Of a stretch of 59,248 bases of DNA, positions 4,213 through 19,361 are shown piece by piece. The stretch comes from Acidobacteria bacterium RIFCSPLOWO2_12_FULL_65_11 (lineage in GTDB: Bacteria; Acidobacteriota; Vicinamibacteria; Vicinamibacterales; CAVVIG01). The stretch covers positions 1-59,248 of the forward strand of contig MELA01000083.1 of the NCBI GenBank assembly GCA_001767495.1, in the 5' to 3' direction. How positions within the stretch are numbered: the first letter of the stretch is position 1; every line of letters begins with the position of its first letter. The notes under the pieces were generated by a model, which worked only from the letters and a program-made list of their open reading frames with translations, was not told the origin of the DNA and made no database searches. A program made the translations under genes and the position numbers.

Positions 4213-4319
4213 GCGGGTCCTGTCCGCGAACAGCCCCACCGGGTGCTCGGCCGAAAGACAGCCTGTCACGGGACACGGCCTCCGCGCCCGGCGGGGCGGC
4301 CCCGTTCGCGGCCACCCGC
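4213..4319 (-). mobile_element. MITE-like repeat, copy A (inverted relative to copy B at 29444-29547)
   Basis: About 85% identity by hand alignment to the reverse complement of 29444-29547. Ends are imperfect inverted repeats (gcgggtcctgtccgcgaacagcccc / ggggccccgttcgcggccacccgc). Confidence 0.6.
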
Positions 4320-4841
4320 TTCGCCCTCTGGCGTGACGTCAGTCTCAGTCCTTATCAGGCTCAGCGTTGGGGAATTCGTCAGGCTCGCGTTGGTGATTGC
4401 CGGCTCCATCGCCTTGGCCAACCCGAAGTCCAGTACCTTGACCTTTTCCTCCGGCGTGATCTTCACGTTCGCCGGCTTGAGGTCCCGGTGGACGACGGCT
4501 TTCTCGTGCGCCGCTTCAAGCGCCTCTGTTATCTGGCGGGCGATGGCCAGGGCTGCATCGACAGGAAGCCCTGAGCCGTGAGTCTTGAGCCGCTCCGCGA
4601 TCGTCTCGCCCTCGACCAGCTCCATGATGAGGAAGTGCCGGTCGCCGTCTTGCTCCATCCCGTAGAGCGCCGCAATGTTGGGGTGGTTGAGCGAGGCGAG
4701 AACCTGCGCCTCGCGCTTGAAGCGCGCGACGCGTTCGGGGTCGGTGGCAAAAGCTTCGGGGAGGACCTTGATGGCGACCTCGCGCCCGAGCTTCGTGTCT
4801 CTGGCGCGATAGACCTCACCCATGCCGCCCGCGCCCAGCAT
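4266..4841 (-). pseudogene. Ser/Thr protein kinase remnant (N-lobe to DFG only)
   Basis: LGAGGMGEVY, VAIK, HRDLKPAN and DFGLAK are present, but no activation-loop APE or C-lobe. The frame runs into the MITE-like repeat and stops. No start codon upstream of the G-loop. Confidence 0.7.
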
Positions 4842-7468: not shown

Positions 7469-8786
7469 GGGTGGACGCGTCGTGGACCCGGCCAACGGCC
7501 GGGACGGCATGTTCGACGTGCTCGTCGACGGCGATCGCATTCTGCGAGTCGGTCGAGATCTCGCCCCCGACTCTGACACACAGGTGGTCGAGTTGCCGGC
7601 TGGGCTCGTCGTCTGTCCGGGCCTCATCGACATGCACGTCCATCTGCGCGAGCCGGGGCAGGAGCACAAGGAGACCGTGGCGACCGGCACGGCGGCGGCT
7701 GTCGCCGGCGGGTTCACGGCGGTCGCGTGCATGCCGAACACCAGCCCGGTGAACGACAACGCCGGCGTCACCGAGTTCATCCTGAAAAAGGCCGCCGAAG
7801 CTCACCTCGCCCGCGTCTATCCGATTGGCGCGGTCTCGCGCGGGCAGCAGGGCGACGAGCTCGCCGACATCGCCGAGCTGAAGCAGGCCGGCTGCGTCGC
7901 CATTACGGATGACGGGCGGCCCGTGGCGACAGCGATGCTGATGCGGCGCGCGCTCGAATACGCCGGCATGTTCGGGCTGGCCGTCATCGAGCACTGCGAG
8001 GAGCAGACGCTCAAGGCCGACGGCGTCGCCCACGAGGGGTTTCACGCGTCAACGCTCGGCCTGCGCGGCATTCCCGGCGAAGCCGAGTCGATTATGGCGC
8101 TGCGCGACATCTCGCTGGCGGCGCTGACCGGGGGCGTGGTCCACATCGCGCACATGAGCGCGCGGCAGACGCTCGATGCGGTCCGGTACGGCAAGTCGCG
8201 TGGCGTCCTCGTCACGTGCGAGGTCACGCCGCACCACTTCGTCCTGACCGACGAGATGCTGGCGGCGCCGATTCCGTACGACACAAACGTCAAAATGAAC
8301 CCGCCGCTGCGCGAGGCGGTCGATCGCGACGCCATGCTGGCGGGCCTCGCTGACGGCTCGATCGATGTGATTGCGACCGACCATGCGCCGCATCATTACG
8401 ACGAGAAGCGCGTCGAGTTCGACCACGCGCCGTTCGGCATCACCGGTCTTGAAACGGCGGTGTCACTCTGTTTGGACCGCCTCGTGCATCCGGGTGTCGT
8501 CACGCTTTCGAGAATCGTCGAGCTGCTGTCGGTCAACCCCGCGCGGATTCTGAAGGTGGCGGGCGGCTCGCTGGCCGAGGGCGCGCCCGCCGACATCACC
8601 GTCCTCGCGCCCGATCTGAGGGTGAAGGTGTCGGTGGAGCGCATGCGCTCGAAGTCGAAAAACACGCCGTTCGATGGCTGGCAGCTCCGCGGAGGCGTGG
8701 CGGCCACCATTGTGGGTGGACGAGTGGTCTATGTGAATGAAGACGTGTCCGGCTTCAGCCGGACCTTGAGGCGTGAGCTGAGGTGA
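7452..8786 (+). CDS. pyrC: Dihydroorotase (multifunctional-complex type)
   Basis: [13 protein letters not shown]...ATDHAPH. Overlaps the pyrB stop. The C-terminal tail ([13 protein letters not shown]) is encoded by a REP-A copy. Confidence 0.9.
8745..8765. repeat. REP-A copy inside the 3' end of pyrC
   Basis: gtgtccggcttcagccggacc, translated as VSGFSRT. Confidence 0.8.
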
Positions 8787-9433
8787 ATGGAGCAATGAGT
8801 CCAACCATGAGCGTCGATCGTCAATCGGATATTCGTGAGAAAGCGCTGAAGGATCTCCAGCAGTCCGAGGTCCTGATGCTCGGCGGGCACTTCGATTACG
8901 GGAACCTCTACCACGGGCGCGTGTACCTCAACGCGCACCAACTGTTTCGTCACCCGTCGACCATCTGGCGCTTCGCGCAGGACCTCATCGATCTGCTTCC
9001 GTCCGATCTCATTCAACGGACCGAGGTCGTGGCCGGTCCGGCGACCGGGGGAGCGCTCCTGGCGCACACCATCGCGGGGCTGCTCGACAGCCGGCGCAGC
9101 CTCACGCATCCACCGTGCAGCTTCGCGCCGTTCAACGTCGAGGCGGCGGGCGGACTTGCGCTCAGACCGTTCTATCGCCGGGAGCTGGCGGGGAAGCGCG
9201 TGCTGCTGGCCGACGATGTGCGGAACACGGGAGAGACGTTCGCCCGGTGTGCGGCGCTCGTCCGCGAGTCGGGAGGCACGGTGCTGGCCACCGTCGAGAT
9301 CTACGATCGGCTGGAGGCGCTGCGCGATCTCGGCGTGCCGAACGTCGCGCTCGCCGAATACAAGGCGCCCGAAAACTACAAAGCGGAGGATTGTCCCCTC
9401 TGCAAGGCCGGCACGCCCATCACGAGATTCTGA
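8783..9433 (+). CDS. Phosphoribosyltransferase, PyrE-like paralogue
   Basis: PRPP loop VLLADDVRNTGETF and C-terminal CPLCKAG, as in the pyrE at 22186 (CPLCAKG). GTG start overlaps the pyrC stop (GTGA). Confidence 0.7.
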   Translation: MNGAMSPTMSVDRQSDIREKALKDLQQSEVLMLGGHFDYGNLYHGRVYLNAHQLFRHPSTIWRFAQDLIDLLPSDLIQRTEVVAGPATGGALLAHTIAGLLDSRRSLTHPPCSFAPFNVEAAGGLALRPFYRRELAGKRVLLADDVRNTGETFARCAALVRESGGTVLATVEIYDRLEALRDLGVPNVALAEYKAPENYKAEDCPLCKAGTPITRF

Positions 9434-9477
9434 AGGCTCTTTGACCGCCGACGACGGTATAGTCCTCTTGACCGTTC

Positions 9478-12400
9478 ATGTCCGCGATCATCGAGAACCC
9501 CATCCTCAACTCGCCTTTTCTCGAGCCGACGCGCCACTTCAGGTTCGACGACGAAGGCATCACCAACGAGATCGCGAGCGGTCGTCGGCCCAGCTCGCAT
9601 TTCGTCCCGATTCCCCGCGCGAAGAAGAAGGGCAAGCAGCTTCAGTTCGAGACCGAGTGGACCAAGGACCGGATTGAGTCAAACCCGGTCGTGGACCGCA
9701 TCCGTCAGCGTGTAGGCGCTTGGCGTAAAGGTGGATACGTCGGCGTCACGGGCGTGACGTCGCGCCTGCTTTCGTACTGGACGCGCGAAGGGCGCGACAA
9801 GCCGCTCTTCTTCTGTCAGGTCGAAGCCGTCGAAACCGCCATCTACATTGCGGAAGTCGCGCGGAAGTACGGCGACGCGTGGATCGAGAACGATCTGCGC
9901 ACGGCGAACGACACGTCGAATCCCGGGCTGCCGCGCCTGGCGCTGAAGATGGCGACCGGATCCGGCAAGACGGTCGTGATGGCGATGGTTATCGCGTGGC
10001 AGGCGCTCAATAAGCTGGAGGACCGCCAGGACGCGCGCTTCTCCGACGCGTTTCTGATCGTCACTCCCGGGATCACCATTCGGGACCGCCTCCGGGTTCT
10101 CCTGCCGACCGATCCCGACAACTACTATCGCCAACGCGACATCCTTCCGTCGGACCTGCTGGAGCGGCTGGCACAGGCAAGGATCGTGATCACGAACTAC
10201 CATGCCTTCCTGGCCCACGAGCGAGGAGACGCGGCCAGGCTGACCAAGTCGATTCTGACAAGAGGTGAGCCAAGTCCATTCCAGGAGACGCCCGATCAGG
10301 TCGTTCGCCGCGTCTGCCGCGATCTCGGTGGCAAGAAGAACATCGTCGTCATCAACGACGAAGCACATCATTGCTACCGCCGGCGTCCGGACGCCGAAGA
10401 GGAGACCCCGGAGACCCTGGAAACACTGACCGGCGACGACCGGCAGGAGGCGGCGAAGCGCGACGAGGAAGCTCGTGTGTGGCTGTCCGGTCTTGAAGAC
10501 GTGAAGAGCAAGATCGGCGTGAAAGCGATCTACGATCTGTCCGCCACGCCCTTCTTCCTGCAAGGATCCGGCTATCCCGAAGGCACGCTCTTTCCGTGGG
10601 TGGTCTCGGACTTTTCGCTCGTCGATGCGATCGAGGCGGGTATCGTGAAGGTCCCGCGCGTGCCGGTGGCCGACAACTCGATGACCGGCGACCAGCCGAC
10701 GTACCGCGACCTGTGGATCAGGATCCGCGAGGGCCTGCCCAAGAAGGGCAGGAAGACCGACGCCATCGGCGGCGAACCGAAGCTGCCAGCCGAACTGCAG
10801 GGCGCGCTGCACAGCCTGTACGACAACTATCGCCTGTCGTTCGAGAAATGGGAGGCGAATGCCGAAGCCAGGGCCCGTGGCCTGACGCCGCCCGTCTTTG
10901 TCGTCGTCTGCAACAACACGAATGTCTCGAAGATGGTGTTCGACTACGTGGCGGGTTGGACCAAACCCCTGGCGGATGGATCCGAGGTCGTGGTGCCGGG
11001 AGCGCTCGACCTCTTCAACAACGAAGAGAGCGGCCGATGGTCCGCGCGGCCGAACACGATCCTGGTGGACTCCACGCAGCTCGAATCGGACGAAGGGATG
11101 AGCCCCGAGTTCAAGAAGATTGCCGCGGCTGAGATCGAGGAGTTCAAATCCGAGTATCGAGCGCGGTTTCCAGGCCGGAGCACCGACGATCTACGCGACG
11201 AAGACCTCTTGCGCGAGGTGATGAATACCGTCGGCAAAGCGGGAAAGCTCGGCGAGCGCGTGCGCTGCGTCGTGTCCGTGTCGATGCTGACCGAAGGCTG
11301 GGATGCCAACACGGTGACGCACATTCTGGGCGTGCGGGCTTTTGGCACCCAGCTTCTCTGCGAGCAGGTTGTCGGCCGCGGCCTGCGGCGCATGAGATAT
11401 GCCGTGAACAGCGACGGAAAGTTCGACGCCGAGTATGCCGAGGTCTACGGCGTGCCGTTTTCGTTCATTCCCTGTTCCGGCTCGAGTCCCAATCCGACTC
11501 CTGGGCCGATGCCGACGCGTGTACGGGCGCTCGAGGACCGGATTGCGTGCGAAGTGACGTTCCCGCGCCTGCTCGGCTACCGGTACGACGTGCCAAGCGA
11601 GAGACTGGCGGCGACCTTCACGGCCGATTCCAGGCTCGCCCTCTCGACCGCGGACATTCCGACCCGGACCGAGAATGCGCCAATCGTCGGCGAGCGAACC
11701 ATCCACACGCTTGACGACCTCAAGCGGCACCGCGACAACGAAGTGGCGTTCCTGCTCGCCAAACTGACACTCGAGAAATACTTCCGGCAGGACAACGAAC
11801 AGAAGACCGATCGGCCGTCGGTCCATCGCTTCGATGCTGACGTGAAAGGCTGGCTGTTCCCCCAGATGCTGGCGATTGCCAAGCGCTGGCTCGCCGAGTG
11901 CGTCACCTGCAAGGACAACACGTTTCCCCAGCTGCTGCTCCTGGTCGAGTTCGCGCACGATGCGGCCGACCGGATTTACAAGGCGATTGTCGAGAGCGCG
12001 GCCGGCACGCCCGCCCTCAAGCCGATCCTGAGGCCCTACGACGTTGTCGGCTCGACCCGATACGTGGACTTCGACACGACCAAGGCGGTGTATCCGACCG
12101 CTTCCGACAAGTGCCACGTCTCCCACGTTGTCGCCGACACCGGGTCGTGGGAGCAGAAGATGGCGCAGGCACTCGAGGAGATGCCAGAGGTTGTGCGCTA
12201 TGTGAAGAATCAGAGCCTCGGCTTCACGATTCCATACACGTTGAACGGCGAGGAGAAGCAGTACTACCCCGACTTCGTCGCTCAGATGAAGGTTGGCGGA
12301 AGTAGTGTCCGGCTTCAGCCGGACGTTCTCAATCTGATCATTGAAGTCACAGGCGAAGCGCGGAAGGACAAGGCCGCGAAGGTGACGACCGCGCGGACGC

Positions 12401-12525
12401 TGTGGGTGCCGGCGGTAAACAACCATGGCGGCTTCGGCCGATGGGCGTTTGTCGAAGTGACCGATCCGTGGGACGCGCAGCGCACGATTCGTGCCGCGCT
12501 CTCGAAATCGATGCAGGAGGCGTGA
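9478..12525 (+). CDS. res: Type III-like restriction enzyme Res subunit (SF2 helicase plus C-terminal PD-(D/E)xK-like nuclease)
   Basis: Walker A MATGSGKT, DEAH box VVINDEAHH, motif VI-like QVVGRGLRR, and C-terminal YYPDF...IIEVTG. Confidence 0.85.
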   Translation: MSAIIENPILNSPFLEPTRHFRFDDEGITNEIASGRRPSSHFVPIPRAKKKGKQLQFETEWTKDRIESNPVVDRIRQRVGAWRKGGYVGVTGVTSRLLSYWTREGRDKPLFFCQVEAVETAIYIAEVARKYGDAWIENDLRTANDTSNPGLPRLALKMATGSGKTVVMAMVIAWQALNKLEDRQDARFSDAFLIVTPGITIRDRLRVLLPTDPDNYYRQRDILPSDLLERLAQARIVITNYHAFLAHERGDAARLTKSILTRGEPSPFQETPDQVVRRVCRDLGGKKNIVVINDEAHHCYRRRPDAEEETPETLETLTGDDRQEAAKRDEEARVWLSGLEDVKSKIGVKAIYDLSATPFFLQGSGYPEGTLFPWVVSDFSLVDAIEAGIVKVPRVPVADNSMTGDQPTYRDLWIRIREGLPKKGRKTDAIGGEPKLPAELQGALHSLYDNYRLSFEKWEANAEARARGLTPPVFVVVCNNTNVSKMVFDYVAGWTKPLADGSEVVVPGALDLFNNEESGRWSARPNTILVDSTQLESDEGMSPEFKKIAAAEIEEFKSEYRARFPGRSTDDLRDEDLLREVMNTVGKAGKLGERVRCVVSVSMLTEGWDANTVTHILGVRAFGTQLLCEQVVGRGLRRMRYAVNSDGKFDAEYAEVYGVPFSFIPCSGSSPNPTPGPMPTRVRALEDRIACEVTFPRLLGYRYDVPSERLAATFTADSRLALSTADIPTRTENAPIVGERTIHTLDDLKRHRDNEVAFLLAKLTLEKYFRQDNEQKTDRPSVHRFDADVKGWLFPQMLAIAKRWLAECVTCKDNTFPQLLLLVEFAHDAADRIYKAIVESAAGTPALKPILRPYDVVGSTRYVDFDTTKAVYPTASDKCHVSHVVADTGSWEQKMAQALEEMPEVVRYVKNQSLGFTIPYTLNGEEKQYYPDFVAQMKVGGSSVRLQPDVLNLIIEVTGEARKDKAAKVTTARTLWVPAVNNHGGFGRWAFVEVTDPWDAQRTIRAALSKSMQEA
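12302..12324. repeat. REP-A copy inside the res nuclease region
   Basis: gtagtgtccggcttcagccggac, translated as SSVRLQPD, between PDF and EVTG. Confidence 0.85.
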
Positions 12526-12559
12526 CCTCACTTGTCACGTCCGTGGGAAGAATGGAAGC

Positions 12560-12646
12560 GTGAGTAAGAAGGCTCTTCGGCTGGACGAGATCGGCTACTG
12601 GTCGGAGGTGATCTTCGACACGTATCGCATGAGAGGGGCACTCTGA
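12560..12646 (+). other. 28-codon ORF coupled to the DUF5131 gene; possible TcmP N-terminal remnant
   Basis: GTG start after ggaagaatggaag. Translation is [31 protein letters not shown] overlaps the ATG at 12646 (TGATG). Confidence 0.25.
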
Positions 12647-13398
12647 TGGCCACGAACTCTCACATCGAGTGGACGGAAGCGACGTGGAATCCCGTCACGG
12701 GCTGCACGAAGATCAGTCCCGGATGCGCGCACTGCTACGCGGAGCGGATGGCGAAGAGGCTGAAGGCCATGGGTCAGGGCAACTACGCTAACGGATTTGA
12801 ACTTACCCTTCAGGGGCAGATGCTCGACCTGCCGCTTCGGTGGAAGCGATCGAAGCGCATCTTCGTCAACTCGATGAGCGACATGTTTCACGCGGACGTC
12901 CCCGTCGACTTCATCCAAAAGGCCTTTGACGTCATGCGCCGCGCACACCAGCACCAGTTTCAGATTCTAACAAAGCGCTCGGAGAGACTGCTGAGCCTCG
13001 ACTGGCAGTTGGCCTGGCAGCCGCACATCTGGATGGGCGTCAGCGTCGAGAATGCTCGATTCCTGCACCGGATCGACCACTTGCGCGCCACGCGTGCCCA
13101 CGTCAAGTTCCTTTCCCTTGAGCCGCTTCTTGGTCCGCTGCCTTGCCTCGATCTGCGGAATATCGATTGGGTGATCGTCGGTGGAGAATCAGGCCCAGAC
13201 GCCAGGCCGATGCATCCATCCTGGGTGGGGGATATTCGGGACCAGTGCCGGAATGCGGGAGTCGCGTTTTTCTTCAAGCAGTGGGGCGGTGTCTTCAAGA
13301 GCCGGACCGGGCGTGAGCTCGAGGGACGCACATGGGATCAGATGCCGAACGAGCCCCGCATCGGATGGGCGCTCCGTTCAGTAGAACAGCAAGCGTGA
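12646..13398 (+). CDS. DUF5131 / phage Gp37-Gp68 family protein (three-Cys motif)
   Basis: N-terminal [27 protein letters not shown] and C-terminal [10 protein letters not shown]...FFFKQWGG, characteristic of PF07505. Confidence 0.8.
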
Positions 13399-13469
13399 CG
13401 CCGACGTGAGATGAAAGAACGAGAAGGCGGCGGCTTGCCGGCGGTGTTGAAGGGGTCTAAGCTGGCGCG

Positions 13470-13688
13470 ATGCTGGATTGGGCCACGTGTCCAGTCGTTG
13501 AACGCGCGCCCGAGCGCGTCAGCGGCGCGTGGGTGTTCAAGGGAACCCGAATCCCGGTGCGCGCGCTGTTCGAGAATCTTGAAGAGGGCGCGAGTGTGGA
13601 TGATTTTCTGAAGTGGTTCCCCGGCGTCACGCGCGATCAGGTGATCGCCGTGCTGACGCACGCCACGCACAGCTTGACGCCTGCCTGA
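13470..13688 (+). CDS. DUF433 domain protein (antitoxin-like HTH)
   Basis: VSGAWVFKGTRIPVRALFENLEEGASVDDFLKWFPGVTRDQV. Confidence 0.7.
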   Translation: MLDWATCPVVERAPERVSGAWVFKGTRIPVRALFENLEEGASVDDFLKWFPGVTRDQVIAVLTHATHSLTPA

Positions 13689-13695
13689 CGCGGCC

Positions 13696-13953
13696 TTGAA
13701 GAGACGTAAGTTGCTGGCCCGGCTCGTTTCTGGTGCGGTTCAGAACGTTGCCTTCTCCGATCTACACTCCCTCGTAACGGGCTTCGGCTTCGAGCTTCGG
13801 GGTACGAGCGGTAGCCACCACATCTACTCGCATTCGGCGATTCCCGAGCTCATCAACCTGCAGGACGTCAACGGCCAGGCGAAGCCCTATCAGATTCGCC
13901 AGGTGCTCAGGCTGGTGGAGCGGTACAATCTTGCACTGGAGGACGAGGCGTGA
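13696..13953 (+). CDS. hicA: HicA-family mRNA-interferase toxin
   Basis: FSDLHSLVTGFGFELRGTSGSHHIYSH...KPYQIRQVLRLV. TTG start. Stop overlaps the hicB start. Confidence 0.7.
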   Translation: MKRRKLLARLVSGAVQNVAFSDLHSLVTGFGFELRGTSGSHHIYSHSAIPELINLQDVNGQAKPYQIRQVLRLVERYNLALEDEA

Positions 13954-14171
13954 GCGACTATCACATCAACATCTTTTATAGCGACGAAGATGCTGCCTAC
14001 GTCGCCGATATTCCCGACCTCAACTCCTGCTCGGCGGTGGGTGCCACGCCCGAAGAAGCGCTGGCTGCTGTCGAGGTCGCGAAGGAAGCATGGCTGGAGA
14101 CAGCGCGCGAGACCGGAAGGCAAATCCCCACCCCGCGTTATCGCCCCGCGATCTATCAGACCGTCAAGTAA
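13950..14171 (+). CDS. hicB: HicB-family antitoxin (UPF0150 fold)
   Basis: YHINIFYSDEDAAYVADIPDLNSCSAVGATPEEALAAVEVAKEAWLE. GTGA overlap with hicA. Confidence 0.7.
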   Translation: MSDYHINIFYSDEDAAYVADIPDLNSCSAVGATPEEALAAVEVAKEAWLETARETGRQIPTPRYRPAIYQTVK

Positions 14172-14174
14172 CGG

Positions 14175-16364
14175 TTGATGGCTCCGAAGACGAAATCGCC
14201 GAAAGCGCCGACTGAAATCACGTCGATCCGCCACAAGAAGGACACGCGGGTCAATATTCCGACCGAGGAGCTGCGCGACTTCGTCGCCGAGGACGAGAAG
14301 GCGCCGAAGGCGATGCTCTATCCGCGCGATCCGTCGCTCGACCCGCAGCTTGTCTGGAAGGGCAAGGACGAGCAGGATGCCGCGGCCCTCGAGGTGCCGG
14401 TCGTTCCGATTTACATCCAGGAGAAGGTGCATCCGCAGGCGCTCGTCGAGAACCTGCGCGACACGACGAAGGCGGGCGAGAAGGAACCCGAGCTGACGCT
14501 CTTCAACGACTTCAACGGGATGGACGATGCGGCGTTCGACAAGAAGGTGGACTTCTACCACCACGACCAGCACTGGTCGAACCGGATGATCCTCGGCGAC
14601 TCGCTGCTCGTGATGACGAGCCTCGCCGAGAAGGAAGGGCTGAAGGGCAAGGTCCAGACGATCTATTTCGATCCGCCGTACGGCATCAAGTTCGGATCGA
14701 ACTGGCAGGTGTCCACCCGCAAGCGCGACGTGAAGGACGGGAAGGTGGAGGACGCGACGCGCCAACCGGAACAGATCCGCGCGTTCCGCGACACGTGGAA
14801 GCTCGGCGTTCACTCGTACCTTGCCTACTTGCGGGATCGACTCTTCGTGGCACGCGAGCTGTTGACCGTGAGCGGCAGCATCTTCGTTCAAATCGGTGAC
14901 GAGAACGTGCATTTGGTTAGGTGTGCGTTGGACGAAGTGTTCGGTAGCGAGAACTTTGTCGCACAGATAAACGTGCAGAAAACAGGGTCAGTATCGACCG
15001 GCCTTCTTCCGACGACCGTCGACTATGTCCTGTTCTACGCGAGAGACAGGAGCTTGTTGAAATACCGTCAGCTCTTTTCAGAGCGTGAAGCTGGCACAAC
15101 GACGCTTGATCGATACGACTTGGTTCTGCTGCCCGACGGTTCTCAGCGCCGACTTACTGCGGTCGAACTCGAAGATCCCAGTTCAGTGCGAGGGCGACGA
15201 TTCAGATATCAATCGCTGCTTAGTGCTCGACCCGCGTCCGGAACTGACGTACGGGAGTTCTCGCTCAATGGTCAGCGATTCACGCCAGGCTCGGGGACTT
15301 TCAAGACGGATCGTTCCGGTTTGGAGCGATTGGCGTCTGCTCTTCGATTGAGCCACGTTGGCACGACGCTGCAGTACGTCCGGTATGTTGATGACTTCCC
15401 GGTGGTCCCGGTGAACGATCGCTGGGAGTCGATTCAGATTGGAACTGAGTTGACTTATGTAGTTCAAACGAGCGTTAGGGTAGTCGAACGTTGTCTACTT
15501 ATGACGACTGAGCCTGGCGACTTGGTTCTGGATCCAACCTGCGGTTCGGCGACGACAGCGTTTGTGGCGGAGCAGTGGGGGCGGCGCTGGATCACCATCG
15601 ATACGAGCCGGGTCGCGCTGGCGCTCGCGCGAACGCGGCTGATGGGCGCGAAGTATCCGTACTACCTCCTTGCCGATTCGCCGGAAGGCGTTCGCAGAGA
15701 GGCCGAGGTCACGGGGAAGATTCCTCCCGACTACAAGACCGACAACGACATCCGGAAGGGTTTCGTCTACAAGCGCGTGCCGCACGTCACGCTGAAGTCG
15801 ATCGCGAACAATCCGGACATCAAGGAAGGAATGTCGCGGGTGGAAATCGACTCCGCAATCCAGCGCCACGCTGATACCGAGCTGCTCTACGACAAGCTGA
15901 CGGTCCTCGCCACGCGGATGAATCCCGATCTGTCGATGGGCGACGAGTTGCTCAAGAAAACCGGCGCCGGCAACCTGTTCATGGTCTTCGGCGAGCCTGA
16001 TATCAAGATCAGCGCAACCGACGACAATGGAGAACAGCACCTCACCGTCGAGGTGAAGGGCGTCGACGTCTACGATCCGACGACGGGGCAGATCCGCAGC
16101 AGTTCGACGGACGATATCGCCTGCTGGTTCATCGACACGGACTACAACGGAGAGAGCTTCTTCGTCCGGCACGCGTACTTCACGGGCGGAGAGGAGCCGT
16201 ATGAAAAACTGAAACGCGCCCTGCGCGCCGAGATAGACGAGGGCTCGTGGGCGACGCTCTACAGCACTGTCAGCCGGCCGTTCGCCCCGCCAGAGACCGG
16301 CAAGATCGCCGTCAAGGTCATCAACCACTACGGCGACGAAGTGCTGAAGGTGTTTGAACTCTAA
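14175..16364 (+). CDS. mod: Site-specific DNA methyltransferase (N6/N4, beta-class order IV then I), type III Mod-like
   Basis: Motif IV IYFDPPYGIKF, motif I VLDPTCGSATTA, and family-typical C terminus FFVRHAYFTG...AVKVINHYGDEVLKVFEL. Confidence 0.85.
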   Translation: MMAPKTKSPKAPTEITSIRHKKDTRVNIPTEELRDFVAEDEKAPKAMLYPRDPSLDPQLVWKGKDEQDAAALEVPVVPIYIQEKVHPQALVENLRDTTKAGEKEPELTLFNDFNGMDDAAFDKKVDFYHHDQHWSNRMILGDSLLVMTSLAEKEGLKGKVQTIYFDPPYGIKFGSNWQVSTRKRDVKDGKVEDATRQPEQIRAFRDTWKLGVHSYLAYLRDRLFVARELLTVSGSIFVQIGDENVHLVRCALDEVFGSENFVAQINVQKTGSVSTGLLPTTVDYVLFYARDRSLLKYRQLFSEREAGTTTLDRYDLVLLPDGSQRRLTAVELEDPSSVRGRRFRYQSLLSARPASGTDVREFSLNGQRFTPGSGTFKTDRSGLERLASALRLSHVGTTLQYVRYVDDFPVVPVNDRWESIQIGTELTYVVQTSVRVVERCLLMTTEPGDLVLDPTCGSATTAFVAEQWGRRWITIDTSRVALALARTRLMGAKYPYYLLADSPEGVRREAEVTGKIPPDYKTDNDIRKGFVYKRVPHVTLKSIANNPDIKEGMSRVEIDSAIQRHADTELLYDKLTVLATRMNPDLSMGDELLKKTGAGNLFMVFGEPDIKISATDDNGEQHLTVEVKGVDVYDPTTGQIRSSSTDDIACWFIDTDYNGESFFVRHAYFTGGEEPYEKLKRALRAEIDEGSWATLYSTVSRPFAPPETGKIAVKVINHYGDEVLKVFEL

Positions 16365-16379
16365 GTCCGATCGAAGGCC

Positions 16380-16673
16380 GTGGCGTTCCGTCGAGACCTG
16401 TTGAAGCTGCTGACCGTCCAACCACGATCCGTGTCGTCGCTTGCGCGCGAGCTGGGGCTCAGGCGCGGCGACGTGGAGGAGGACCTGCGTCACGTCATTC
16501 GCACCGCGCGGGCCGCGGGCCATCGCGTCATCGTCGAGCCGGCCCGCTGCCGGGCGTGCGGATTCACCTTCGGCGAAGAGAAGCTGCTGAAGCCGGGGAA
16601 GTGTCCGTCGTGCCGAGGCACGCGGTTGTACGAGGCGCAGATTCGGATCGAGGTTGGACTGAGCCAGACTTGA
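16380..16673 (+). CDS. Small HTH plus Zn-ribbon transcriptional regulator (COG3357-like)
   Basis: PRSVSSLARELGLRRGDVEEDL, then CRACG...CPSCRG. Confidence 0.6.
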   Translation: MAFRRDLLKLLTVQPRSVSSLARELGLRRGDVEEDLRHVIRTARAAGHRVIVEPARCRACGFTFGEEKLLKPGKCPSCRGTRLYEAQIRIEVGLSQT

Positions 16674-16691
16674 AACTTGAGACTTACGGTC

Positions 16692-19361
16692 TCAGCGAGG
16701 CGTAAGCCTCAGATGTCCGATCGCGCCTGCCTCGACGTCCTTGCGCTCCATCCTCATAGGCCGGTATCGCACCTTCTGCCAATCCTGGAGAAAGTCGTCA
16801 TAGTGGCGCGAGAGCGGGTGGCCTGATTCACCAACCGCGTCGATGAATCGGCTGTCGTTGGCAGGCGAGAGGTCGATGATCTCGCGGTAGCTGGCCACCG
16901 AGCGCTGTTCGTACGGGCGGTCGGCCGACACCGTGCCGACGTTGACCGTGCTCCAGTCGCCGCCGTTCGGGATCGAACGGCTGAGGATCGGCCGCAACAT
17001 CGCAATGCTGTCGAGCTGGTGCGGAAAGACCGCGCGGTGCACCTCGTCCCACCGCCAGCGCGTCAGGTCGCGACCCAGCCGCACGGTCAGATCGGCGACT
17101 GCGTCATTGAGCGCAGCGGTCACCGCTTCCTCGCACCTCTCCCGCACTCCCGGCGTTCGCACATCGTCGCACCACGCGCTGTCCCTAGCGGCTGGGTCCG
17201 CCGGCAGGAGTTGCACCCCAGTCGTGGTGCCGTTGGCAGACGTAGTGTCCGCCTTCAGGCGGACCGCCTGTGACCCGAGCGTGCTGACGAGGAAGCGTGT
17301 GGTGAAGCTGAAGCGTCCCAGATAGTTCTCGGTCACACGCGGACCCAGATCGTCGCCGACAAGGGCCGGCACCAGCTTGAGAAACCATGCCTCGAAGATC
17401 GCCGGCGCGGCGAGGTCGCCTCGCGCGTCGCCGTTCCAGTCGCGCAGCACGGCCAGTGCGCGCTGGCCATCGGGATCGGTCGGATGCGCCAGTGGCAGCA
17501 ACACCGGCAGCAGCGTCTTGGCGTGCTGCGAGAGCGTGTCGGCCTGGATCCGGGCGAAATCATCTGGCGTGAGTCCTGACCTGGTTCCGTCCGGCTGAAG
17601 CCGGACACTACGACCGGCGTCAGACAGCAGGTCGGTAATGCGCTGCGCGCGGTACGGCTCGGGCCACTCATGGCCGAGCAGGTGCGGATAGCCGGCCGGC
17701 GCCGGGCGATTGTTGGCGGTGACGATGAAGTGCTCGGGCGGGTCGTAGAGATGGGGCAGCTGGTCGAAGGGAATCCAGCCGGTCCATTCTGTGTCGCCAG
17801 ACCAGCCCTCGATGGGCAGCGAGCCGTCGCCTCCCGCGCGAATCGGGATCCGCCCGGGCGCGTAGTAGCCGATGTGGCCATCGACATCGCCGTAGACGAA
17901 ATTCTGCGACGGCACGACGAAATAGCGGAGTGCGTTGGTGAAGTCGTCCCAATTGCGCGCGTCGTTCAGCTTCAGAAACGCCGCGAGCGTCGTGTCGTCG
18001 GGATCGAGCGCCGTCCACCGGAACGCCAGCGGGTCGAGCGGAGCCGGCTTTGGATCGGCGACAAGCGCGGCATTGTTCGCGTTGATGGCGTCCGACACCA
18101 GTGGTCCATGCCGAGTGATGCGCACCTCGATCTGCACCGGTGCGGCGCCCTTGACCTTGATGATCTCGCTCAGGATCGTCAGCGGCTCCTGATTCCCGCG
18201 GTACTCGGCAAACCGTCCGGTCGCGTCGATGCGCTCGCGGTAGAGATCCTCGACATCGGCCGCCACGTTGGTGGTGCCCCACGCGATGAAGCGGTTGCGT
18301 CCGAGCGCCACGGCCGGCACGCCGGGCAGCGTCGCACCGATCACGTCGAAAGCGCCGGCAGAGAGGTGCGCCAGATACCATATTGACGGCAGTCTGGTAC
18401 CGAGATGGGGATCGTTGGCGAGGAGCGGCTTGCCCGTCGCCGTGAGCGATCCGTCGACGACCCAGTTGTTCGAGCCGAGCGCTTCGGTGGTGGCGGCGCC
18501 GAGCAGAAAATCACGAACGCGAGGCTCGCCCTGCGACAGTGCGGCGCGGAAAGCGGCAGACCAGGAGTCAAATGCACTCGTGTAGGGCGGGTCCTTTCGG
18601 ACCCGCCGGACAGCCGGGTCCAAAAGGACCCGGCCTACCTCGGACTTTGACGAAAGGCGGCGGCTTGAGACTGGTATGTCGCGCGCGTGGAGAATGCTCG
18701 GGCCATCAGCCGCGTACGGCGGCATGAGCTGCCGCATGCGCTCCACGCCCACGAGCTGGACGAGGTCGCGCCGCAGGAGCTCGAACGAGTAGTTCGCGCT
18801 CAGATCCCAGGCCATCATCTTGACCCAGACGATGACGTCGACGCCGGTCCACGGCTCAGGCTGCACACCGAGCAGTGTGAACTCTGGCGGCAATCGGCTG
18901 CCGCGACGAGTCGAGACAAACGCGTTCACGCCCGCCACGTACGCATCGATCTGTTGTCGGGCCCAATCCGGCGTCGAGTTCCACGCCGCGGCGGCCGCAC
19001 GGCCGAAGCCGACCGTGCGAAGGAACCGATCCTGGGAGACGGCGGCGGGCCCGAAGATCTCGGCCAGGCGGCCGTGGCCGATGCGCCGCTGCAGTTCCAT
19101 TTGCCACAGGCGGTCCTGTGCGTGCACGTAGCCGAGTCCGAATAGGGCGTCCGACTTGGTCGCTGCGAAGATGTGCGGAATCGCGTCTCGGTCCCGAACG
19201 ATGTCGATAGGCGCAGAAGGGCCGGTCACCGAAACAACCCCATCTATGACCGGAAGCGATCGTCGGAGATACGCGTAGGAAGCGCCGGACAGAACGGCGA
19301 TGGCCACGACGAGGGACGCGAGCGCTTTCACAGAACGGCGGCGCATGACGCGATCATACAA
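16692..19361 (-). CDS. Penicillin acylase-family Ntn hydrolase (possibly acyl-homoserine-lactone or beta-lactam acylase)
   Basis: Signal-like N terminus, DRLWQME, nucleophile context GSNNWVV, and LLANDPHL. Confidence 0.85.
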   Translation of the reverse strand: MYDRVMRRRSVKALASLVVAIAVLSGASYAYLRRSLPVIDGVVSVTGPSAPIDIVRDRDAIPHIFAATKSDALFGLGYVHAQDRLWQMELQRRIGHGRLAEIFGPAAVSQDRFLRTVGFGRAAAAAWNSTPDWARQQIDAYVAGVNAFVSTRRGSRLPPEFTLLGVQPEPWTGVDVIVWVKMMAWDLSANYSFELLRRDLVQLVGVERMRQLMPPYAADGPSILHARDIPVSSRRLSSKSEVGRVLLDPAVRRVRKDPPYTSAFDSWSAAFRAALSQGEPRVRDFLLGAATTEALGSNNWVVDGSLTATGKPLLANDPHLGTRLPSIWYLAHLSAGAFDVIGATLPGVPAVALGRNRFIAWGTTNVAADVEDLYRERIDATGRFAEYRGNQEPLTILSEIIKVKGAAPVQIEVRITRHGPLVSDAINANNAALVADPKPAPLDPLAFRWTALDPDDTTLAAFLKLNDARNWDDFTNALRYFVVPSQNFVYGDVDGHIGYYAPGRIPIRAGGDGSLPIEGWSGDTEWTGWIPFDQLPHLYDPPEHFIVTANNRPAPAGYPHLLGHEWPEPYRAQRITDLLSDAGRSVRLQPDGTRSGLTPDDFARIQADTLSQHAKTLLPVLLPLAHPTDPDGQRALAVLRDWNGDARGDLAAPAIFEAWFLKLVPALVGDDLGPRVTENYLGRFSFTTRFLVSTLGSQAVRLKADTTSANGTTTGVQLLPADPAARDSAWCDDVRTPGVRERCEEAVTAALNDAVADLTVRLGRDLTRWRWDEVHRAVFPHQLDSIAMLRPILSRSIPNGGDWSTVNVGTVSADRPYEQRSVASYREIIDLSPANDSRFIDAVGESGHPLSRHYDDFLQDWQKVRYRPMRMERKDVEAGAIGHLRLTPR
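17242..17264. repeat. REP-A variant (GTCCGCC stem) inside the acylase CDS
   Basis: gtagtgtccgccttcaggcggac, read on the minus strand as VRLKADTT. Confidence 0.8.
17589..17611. repeat. REP-A copy inside the acylase CDS
   Basis: gtccggctgaagccggacactac, read on the minus strand as SVRLQPD. Confidence 0.8.
18582..18639. repeat. Double hairpin element (GGGTCC-N4-GGACCC, twice) inside the acylase CDS
   Basis: gtagggcgggtcctttcggacccgcc ggaca gccgggtccaaaaggacccggcctac. Encodes DPAVRRVRKDPPYT. Confidence 0.7.

Follow-up and report, generated by a model that had tools for sequence, protein, structure and literature searches.

Why are the restriction and modification genes of a type III-like restriction-modification (R-M) island in Acidobacteria bacterium RIFCSPLOWO2_12_FULL_65_11 held apart by a row of small genes, and do those genes work with the R-M pair? 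The island occupies positions 9,478 to 16,673 of a 59,248-nt stretch (contig MELA01000083.1, positions 1 to 59,248 of the forward strand, assembly GCA_001767495.1), and this whole stretch is referred to as the window. A first-pass annotation of the sequence had listed res, a mini-ORF (open reading frame), genes of the DUF5131 and DUF433 families, a hicAB pair, mod, and a gene for a protein with a helix-turn-helix (HTH) and a Zn-ribbon. The ORF listing and profile searches recovered every one of these genes, and their positions, single + strand, and tight packing were confirmed; the gaps between successive genes from the mini-ORF onward were -1, 71, 7, -4, 3, and 15 nt, negative values being overlaps. 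Two explanations had been offered, namely that accessory modules had invaded and were eroding an R-M system, or that DUF5131 formed a composite defense unit with Res and Mod. We favor, at a probability of roughly 75%, an R-M operon of the BPTD_3080 type III-like family whose res-mod gap is a cargo slot, filled in this lineage by a mosaic of three cassettes that are independent modules. What appeared to be a novel seven-gene system becomes a known phenomenon.

The arrangement recurred, at ≥99.5% nucleotide identity, in several independent samples and on no fewer than 24 contigs, NCBI assembly GCA_001767165.1 among them. Because it recurs on these contigs and in several samples, the island is no assembly artifact and represents the real sequence of one natural population. 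The population variants L170-L173 differed from the window by few substitutions, too few for an estimate of selection. The G+C content of the island was 58-63% versus 65-68% in its flanks, and its neighbors were a pyrimidine-biosynthesis operon on one side and a convergent penicillin amidase gene on the other.

The family of the host operon was given by Res, which matched the NCBIfam equivalog NF046055 ("BPTD_3080 family restriction endonuclease") at 1189.6 bits against a cut-off of 800 over residues 5-1006. Its translation showed the GSGKT and DEAH motifs of a superfamily 2 (SF2) helicase/ATPase, and the C-terminal nuclease region corresponded to a PADLOC REase_III match at residues 874-954. 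Res proteins of the BPTD_3080 family are very numerous, with more than 593 loci in GTDB representatives, and they are well conserved from phylum to phylum. We sampled 80 genome loci (labels such as L014) with Res homologues 47-87% identical, and the window proteins were placed on them by tblastn. Both genes were seen in 54 loci, and in all 54 res was followed by mod in the same direction. The distance between them was bimodal, being below 250 bp in 27 loci and 0.46-4.5 kb in the other 27. The first-pass statement that Res and Mod are normally adjacent was therefore right for 27 of the 54 loci only, the remainder carrying cargo.

The cargo was diverse. Searches of the gap ORFs against Pfam, PADLOC, and NCBIfam returned more than 15 unrelated families of the kind typical of defense islands, and every cargo ORF with a family match lay on the res/mod strand (+). 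The combination of TcmP (TIGR04474) and DUF5131 was present in 7 loci, DUF3800 and NTP_transf_2 in 4 each, GmrSD and AAA_21/AAA_15 ATPases in 3 each, and Fic in 2. Abi_2, AIPR, HD, HEPN, YhcG/DUF1016, HNH, Bro-N with DUF1828, Peptidase_M78, and HicAB were single cases, and the gaps also held two transposase-like genes and several proteins without a family match. The same layout was present in annotated plasmids of cultured bacteria, and the order of res then mod was held in those examined. Plasmid pAQ5 of Picosynechococcus sp. PCC 7002 (L180, 5977-12661) carried UPF0175 and DUF3368, a toxin-antitoxin (TA)-like pair, between res and mod; Methylomagnum carried a hypothetical gene between them, with a cyclic oligonucleotide-based anti-phage signaling system (CBASS) after mod; and in Pseudomonas avellanae res and mod were adjacent. 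The res-mod gap of this widespread family thus looks like a productive cargo slot, occupied in about half of the sampled loci. As a model cyanobacterium, Picosynechococcus PCC 7002 with pAQ5 would be tractable for tests of embedded cargo.

Four slot ORFs had no family in Pfam, PADLOC, or NCBIfam, located at L017 13000-13806 (268 aa), L042 13012-13728 (238 aa), L049 12892-13521 (209 aa), and L012 14422-15315 (297 aa). Two others had weak matches only (L055 13011-15242, 743 aa, LmuB-like in PADLOC; L044 13231-15441, IS66-like). By the logic of guilt by embedding, the slot proteins without a family are candidate new defense genes.

Close relatives, with Res proteins 85-90% identical to that of the window, carried differing combinations of the same modules in the slot. 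L081, L082, and L083 were at the same pyr-operon site as the window, and the flanks of the other close relatives differed or were not recovered. In L014 and L083, TcmP and DUF5131 stood between res and mod. L081 and L085 had a cupin gene followed by a TcmP-DUF5131 fusion, L082 had DUF2335 followed by DUF5131 without TcmP, and L084 had M78, DUF4411, a hicA remnant, and then HicB. In L174-L179, the slot held DUF433 followed by DUF5615. The window sequence was assigned to these sources by blastn. Positions 12517-12620 mapped to the start of tcmP in L014, positions 12611-13404 to the last ~35 nt of tcmP together with DUF5131, and positions 13449-13697 to the DUF433 cassette of L174-L179 (84% nucleotide identity). 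Positions 13872-14500, comprising the 3' end of hicA, hicB, and the 5' end of mod, were contiguous with L084 (83%) and L032 (68%). Three cassettes, each seen alone in close relatives, make up the mosaic in the slot of the window; two of them are damaged and HicAB is intact. The first-pass suggestion that accessory modules had invaded was supported, as the gap is a recurrent insertion slot. In a sliding-window comparison of res and both mod ends, nucleotide identity varied little (76-89%) apart from a single block of 92-95% in the 5' region of mod, and recent exchange of cassettes by recombination in the flanks left no clear trace.

The mini-ORF described as coupled to DUF5131 was present, and its identity proved to be that of a deletion remnant. 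An in-frame deletion of ~750 bp in tcmP had left 28 codons, counted from position 12560, where the GTG is the homologous one, and the remnant kept the native TGATG stop/start overlap with DUF5131. The intact upstream gene of L014 matched TIGR04474 (TcmP) at 201.8 bits and the PADLOC model PDC-M41A at 241.8 bits, and the DUF5131 protein of the window matched the B components PDC-M41B (398 bits) and PDC-M30B (378 bits). The candidate PDC-M41-type system is incomplete in the window because its A component, intact in L014, L083, and others, persists only as the 28-codon remnant. DUF5131 itself has been well preserved. Cys20, Cys27, and Cys30 were invariant in 30 homologues, the ratio of nonsynonymous to synonymous substitution rates (dN/dS) was 0.05-0.08, and there were zero private substitutions.

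We further examined DUF5131 from its own side by a metagenome scan in which the 80 closest relatives (64-83% identical) were analyzed. TcmP was directly upstream of DUF5131 in 47 of the 61 loci with enough flank, a lower bound in that divergent TcmP genes were missed. A mod gene of the BPTD_3080 type was directly downstream in 5 of 47 close relatives, and res was upstream in 4 of 40. The other neighborhoods were mixed, some with type I R-M, AAA_21, or AbiEii and some with housekeeping genes. DUF5131 is probably not an R-M subunit, with only about 10% of its closest relatives lying in BPTD_3080 R-M operons; TcmP-DUF5131 is a mobile and autonomous cassette of two genes that frequently ends up in defense operons, that of the window among them. 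Another defense-linked context of the cassette is found in Sinorhizobium meliloti (SMa2243/SMa2245), where a TcmP gene lies close to the gene of the Hna defense helicase and is tabled with hna among the genes differentially expressed with NolR (PMC12445080). In L081 (14019-15536) and L085 (5712-7229), TcmP and DUF5131 were called as a single 489-aa protein, in which TcmP has an internal gap of ~37 aa and continues into DUF5131 in the same frame. Such a fusion in nature speaks for the two proteins acting together.

Defense genes embedded in other defense operons have been described for Hma, BREX, DISARM, and type I R-M under the term guilt-by-embedding (Payne, Hughes, Fineran & Jackson, bioRxiv 10.1101/2024.01.29.577857). 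In that census the embedded genes shared the orientation of the host in 96.7% of cases, and PDC-M30 and PDC-M41 originated from cassettes that BREX, DISARM, and type I R-M operons carried (10.1101/2024.01.29.577857). PrrC inside EcoprrI hsdMSR and BrxU inside BREX are the classic examples of embedding. The cargo of the BPTD_3080 family shares these properties, being nested between host genes, in the same orientation, and variable in content among homologous hosts. Autonomous defense and TA genes make up the cargo in both settings, often in the form of GmrSD-like proteins, ABC/AAA ATPases, or PDC cassettes. The difference lies in the host, which here is a type III-like BPTD_3080 R-M operon with its slot between res and mod, whereas type III-like systems lay outside the published census (10.1101/2024.01.29.577857). 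Our literature search found no description of a res-mod slot in type III-like BPTD_3080 systems. Against PDC-M41 and PDC-M30, the DUF5131 of the window corresponds to the B component, and relatives in the same slot have the full A and B pair, unlike the window with its remnant of A. No report of anti-phage tests of PDC-M30 or PDC-M41 was found in the literature. The arrangement in the window adds one more instance to a behavior already known from bacterial defense loci and is not a new system, so that the first-pass view of an architecture without precedent did not hold: embedding has been published, and TcmP followed by DUF5131 is PADLOC PDC-M30/PDC-M41.

The classical type III gene order is mod then res. 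BPTD_3080 loci differ from the classical systems (EcoP1I, EcoP15I) in having res then mod, and also in their Mods, which measure ~880 aa and have a long C-terminal extension; the window Mod has lost half of this extension. The two groups resemble each other in a Res with SF2 helicase motifs and a C-terminal nuclease region, and in a Mod that is a beta-class N6_N4 methyltransferase with the DPPY motif. The similarity of the window Res to the EcoP15I-type Res model was marginal (NF012027, E=0.0086). By analogy with type III enzymology, Mod would recognize and methylate an asymmetric site as a beta-class N6-adenine methyltransferase, and Res, an SF2 ATPase plus nuclease, would be active only in complex with Mod and would cut unmethylated DNA. 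Small autonomous defense or TA cassettes insert between the two genes in the same orientation, and are probably read through from the operon promoter and travel with the R-M genes. We infer that they are independent modules and not R-M subunits. The slot of the window contains TcmP-DUF5131 with tcmP cut to 28 codons, DUF433 minus DUF5615, and an intact HicA-HicB.

The DUF433 gene had an 87% homologue in the same slot of L174-L179, directly followed there by a gene for the PIN-like protein DUF5615 (PF18480, 24.4 bits, cut-off 23.8). In these loci DUF433 is the small upstream partner, as in DUF433-DUF5615 TA pairs; in the window, by contrast, DUF5615 is absent and hicA starts 7 nt downstream of DUF433. 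HicA had two homologues in the same slot, that of L032 (46%) and a 3' remnant that persists in L084 (92% over 25 aa). HicB was 81% identical to that of L084 and 69% to that of L032, both directly upstream of mod, and its dN/dS was 0.10. As in other HicAB pairs, hicA precedes hicB and the two overlap by 4 nt, and hicB ends 3 nt before mod; unlike in those pairs, the HicB of 73 aa has no C-terminal DNA-binding domain, the part that would serve autoregulation. The predicted type II TA pair is intact in the window.

The first-pass annotation had also spoken of an eroding R-M system, and was right in part only. The clearest erosion was in the cargo, where tcmP is deleted and DUF5615 is lost, and of the R-M proteins Mod was affected, whereas Res, like DUF5131, was without relaxed constraint. 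Aligned to the 878- and 885-aa Mods of L081 and L082, the window Mod carries a lineage-specific in-frame deletion of 155 aa with its junction at nt 15896/15897 (K574|L575). The deleted segment was present in the homologues in which both flanks of mod were recovered, and at 729 aa the window Mod falls short of the family architecture of ~870-890 aa with a conserved C-terminal extension, having some 150 aa fewer than any of its homologues. In addition, motif I for S-adenosylmethionine (AdoMet) binding reads GSATT (G459A, codon 15549-15551), versus GSG(T/S)T in 48 of 48 homologues. The catalytic motif IV, DPPY, was present at residue 166, the remaining C-terminal 155 aa were 88-90% identical to relatives, and the best relatives in the PDB were the type III Mods 6k0w and 4zcf. 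The central target-recognition region differed among close relatives, in keeping with different specificities. Because Mod lost a conserved 155-aa segment and carries G459A, the R-M activity of the window lineage is probably altered or impaired, in methylation or in complex formation. Res showed a dN/dS of 0.05-0.08 against relatives and 7 private substitutions, mid-range among 18 homologues, and it appears intact, without a sign of decay. Three details of the island were thus corrected: the mini-ORF is what remains of tcmP, DUF433 stands without its partner, and Mod is internally deleted with a mutated AdoMet motif.

Variation in mod was seen elsewhere as well. The L172 contig, otherwise 99.9% identical to the window, had 27 clustered differences in its last ~160 bp (window 14741-14897), just before the target-recognition region of mod. 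The cluster points to a second allele of mod within this population, with the contig break in L172 arising from strain heterogeneity. In L174-L179, whose Res is 89% identical to that of the window and among which the DUF433 protein is identical, mod was split at differing positions (689+192, 576+133+192, 325+559, and 576+326 aa) and res was split once (600+403 aa). Repeated pseudogenization, phase variation, or assembly error could account for these splits.

DUF5131 may be a radical-SAM-like enzyme. RadicalSAM.org places the family in Megacluster-5-2, with spore photoproduct lyase (SPL) in the neighboring Megacluster-5-3 (PMC9477430). The cysteine spacing is Cx6Cx2C versus the canonical Cx3Cx2C of radical SAM enzymes. 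The AlphaFold2 (AF2) model had a mean pLDDT of 70 with a confident core at residues 60-210, and Foldseek returned weak partial TIM-barrel matches (SPL 4fhg, E=0.026; LipA 5exk, E=0.09), none of them at E≤0.001. PDB sequence searches with DUF5131 and TcmP gave no meaningful match. The superfamily assignment comes from RadicalSAM.org, and the modeled fold is no more than compatible with it. We found no functional study of DUF5131, TcmP, PF07505, or BPTD_3080 in the literature.

Could a radical-SAM-like DUF5131 nevertheless work with Res and Mod, so that the split layout is functional? DUF5131 could install or erase a second mark on DNA or back up an inhibited R-M system, and there are precedents for such coupling in PrrC-EcoprrI and BrxU-BREX (10.1101/2024.01.29.577857). 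At least 13 loci from several phyla have DUF5131 immediately or almost immediately upstream of mod, and the gene has kept its chromosomal site over a synonymous divergence (dS) of ~1 with its low dN/dS. The composite unit that the first-pass annotation had offered is nonetheless distinctly unlikely, as 27 of the 54 family members carry no cargo at all, the slot accepts more than 15 unrelated families, and ~90% of the closest DUF5131 relatives lie outside BPTD_3080 R-M, most of them paired with TcmP. The same cassette has been catalogued from embedding in BREX, DISARM, and type I R-M, and in the window three further genes stand between DUF5131 and mod. A narrower version, for which we see if anything still poorer prospects, is that DUF5131 without TcmP acquired an R-M-tied function in Vicinamibacterales, for example as a radical-SAM-type DNA enzyme complementing or substituting the altered Mod. 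Such a function would explain why DUF5131 stayed intact, under purifying selection, and by mod after deletion of its partner in two independent lineages. Some points do weigh against the reading we favor. In the acidobacterial clade DUF5131 was kept beside mod while purifying selection on it was strong, and two lineages without TcmP (the window and L082) have it intact; this retention could reflect a role linked to R-M. The 50% figure for cargo was obtained on the 80 loci that most resemble the window Res rather than on an unbiased sample. Mod may be functional despite its changes, both deletions being in frame and its remaining C-terminus conserved. A promoter scan of 8700-17200 returned 1 promoter-like site versus 1.1 expected, and the terminator-like hairpins in that region were all inside coding regions; both results bear neither way on a single transcript.

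That the R-M system of the window lineage is already dead, with the whole island drifting to pseudogenes, is unlikely too. The Mod deletion in a family-conserved segment, the substitution at an otherwise invariant glycine, and the loss of tcmP and DUF5615 all point that way, as do close relatives with a split mod or res (L083, L177-L179) or a truncated hicA (L084). Every ORF is open, however, and both deletions are in frame; Res and DUF5131 have no excess of private substitutions, the C-terminal part of Mod is still conserved, and the arrangement is fixed across contigs of several samples. Hardly credible is the idea that the small ORFs are spurious products of GC-rich DNA and that res and mod are separated by non-coding sequence. 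High-GC DNA does yield many long spurious ORFs, and the HicA and HTH/Zn-ribbon matches are at or just around the Pfam cut-offs. This idea is contradicted by conservation in independent genomes, where homologues occupy the same slot (81-92% for HicB and the 3' end of HicA, 87% for DUF433), and by the dN/dS of HicB; an independent gene caller also predicted all the small genes. A BPTD_3080 operon with independent cassettes in its slot is the reading we retain. The coordinates of the features are listed in Table 1.

Table 1. Genes and gene remnants of the R-M island, with positions in the window.
Feature	Position	Strand	Description
res	9478-12525	+	1015 aa; NF046055, Pfam ResIII, PADLOC REase_III; appears intact
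mini-ORF	12491-12646	+	51 codons; contains tcmP remnant
tcmP remnant	12560-12646	+	28 codons, in frame; blastn vs L014
DUF5131 (phage Gp37/Gp68 family)	12646-13398	+	PF07505 E=2e-102, full length; intact
DUF433, antitoxin-like, orphaned	13470-13688	+	PF04255 E=5e-15
hicA toxin gene, TTG start	13696-13953	+	PF07927 28.0 bits (cut-off 27, marginal); GSH motif
hicB antitoxin gene, 73 aa	13950-14171	+	PF15919 33.6 bits (cut-off 27), residues 4-63
mod, beta-class N6_N4 methyltransferase	14175-16364	+	729 aa; N6_N4_Mtase; PADLOC MTase_III 756 bits
PF0610-like winged HTH (wHTH) + Zn-ribbon	16380-16673	+	PF21476 33.0 bits (cut-off 33), PF23470 25.9 bits (cut-off 26)

The gene following mod encodes a protein with two CxxC pairs (CxxC...CxxC). 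No homologue of it was detected by tblastn at E≤1e-3 in the 80 related loci, and in relatives (L081/L085, L082, L181, L182) the position after mod was taken by MazE-PIN, 23S_rRNA_IVP, a 3'-5' exonuclease, or a CBASS phospholipase with a nucleotidyltransferase. The HTH/Zn-ribbon protein was rejected as a conserved controller of the R-M system on these grounds. The position after mod looks like a second variable or cargo position, with the HTH/Zn-ribbon gene lineage-specific and outside the conserved system.

tRNA and Rfam scans of the window found nothing, and the window therefore holds no tRNA-linked integration site and no regulatory RNA. Upstream of the island, on the - strand, a 191-aa ORF at 4266-4841 matched only the first ~150 of the 263 positions of a protein kinase domain model; the ORF could be a kinase gene cut short, or the gene may be longer and have another start.

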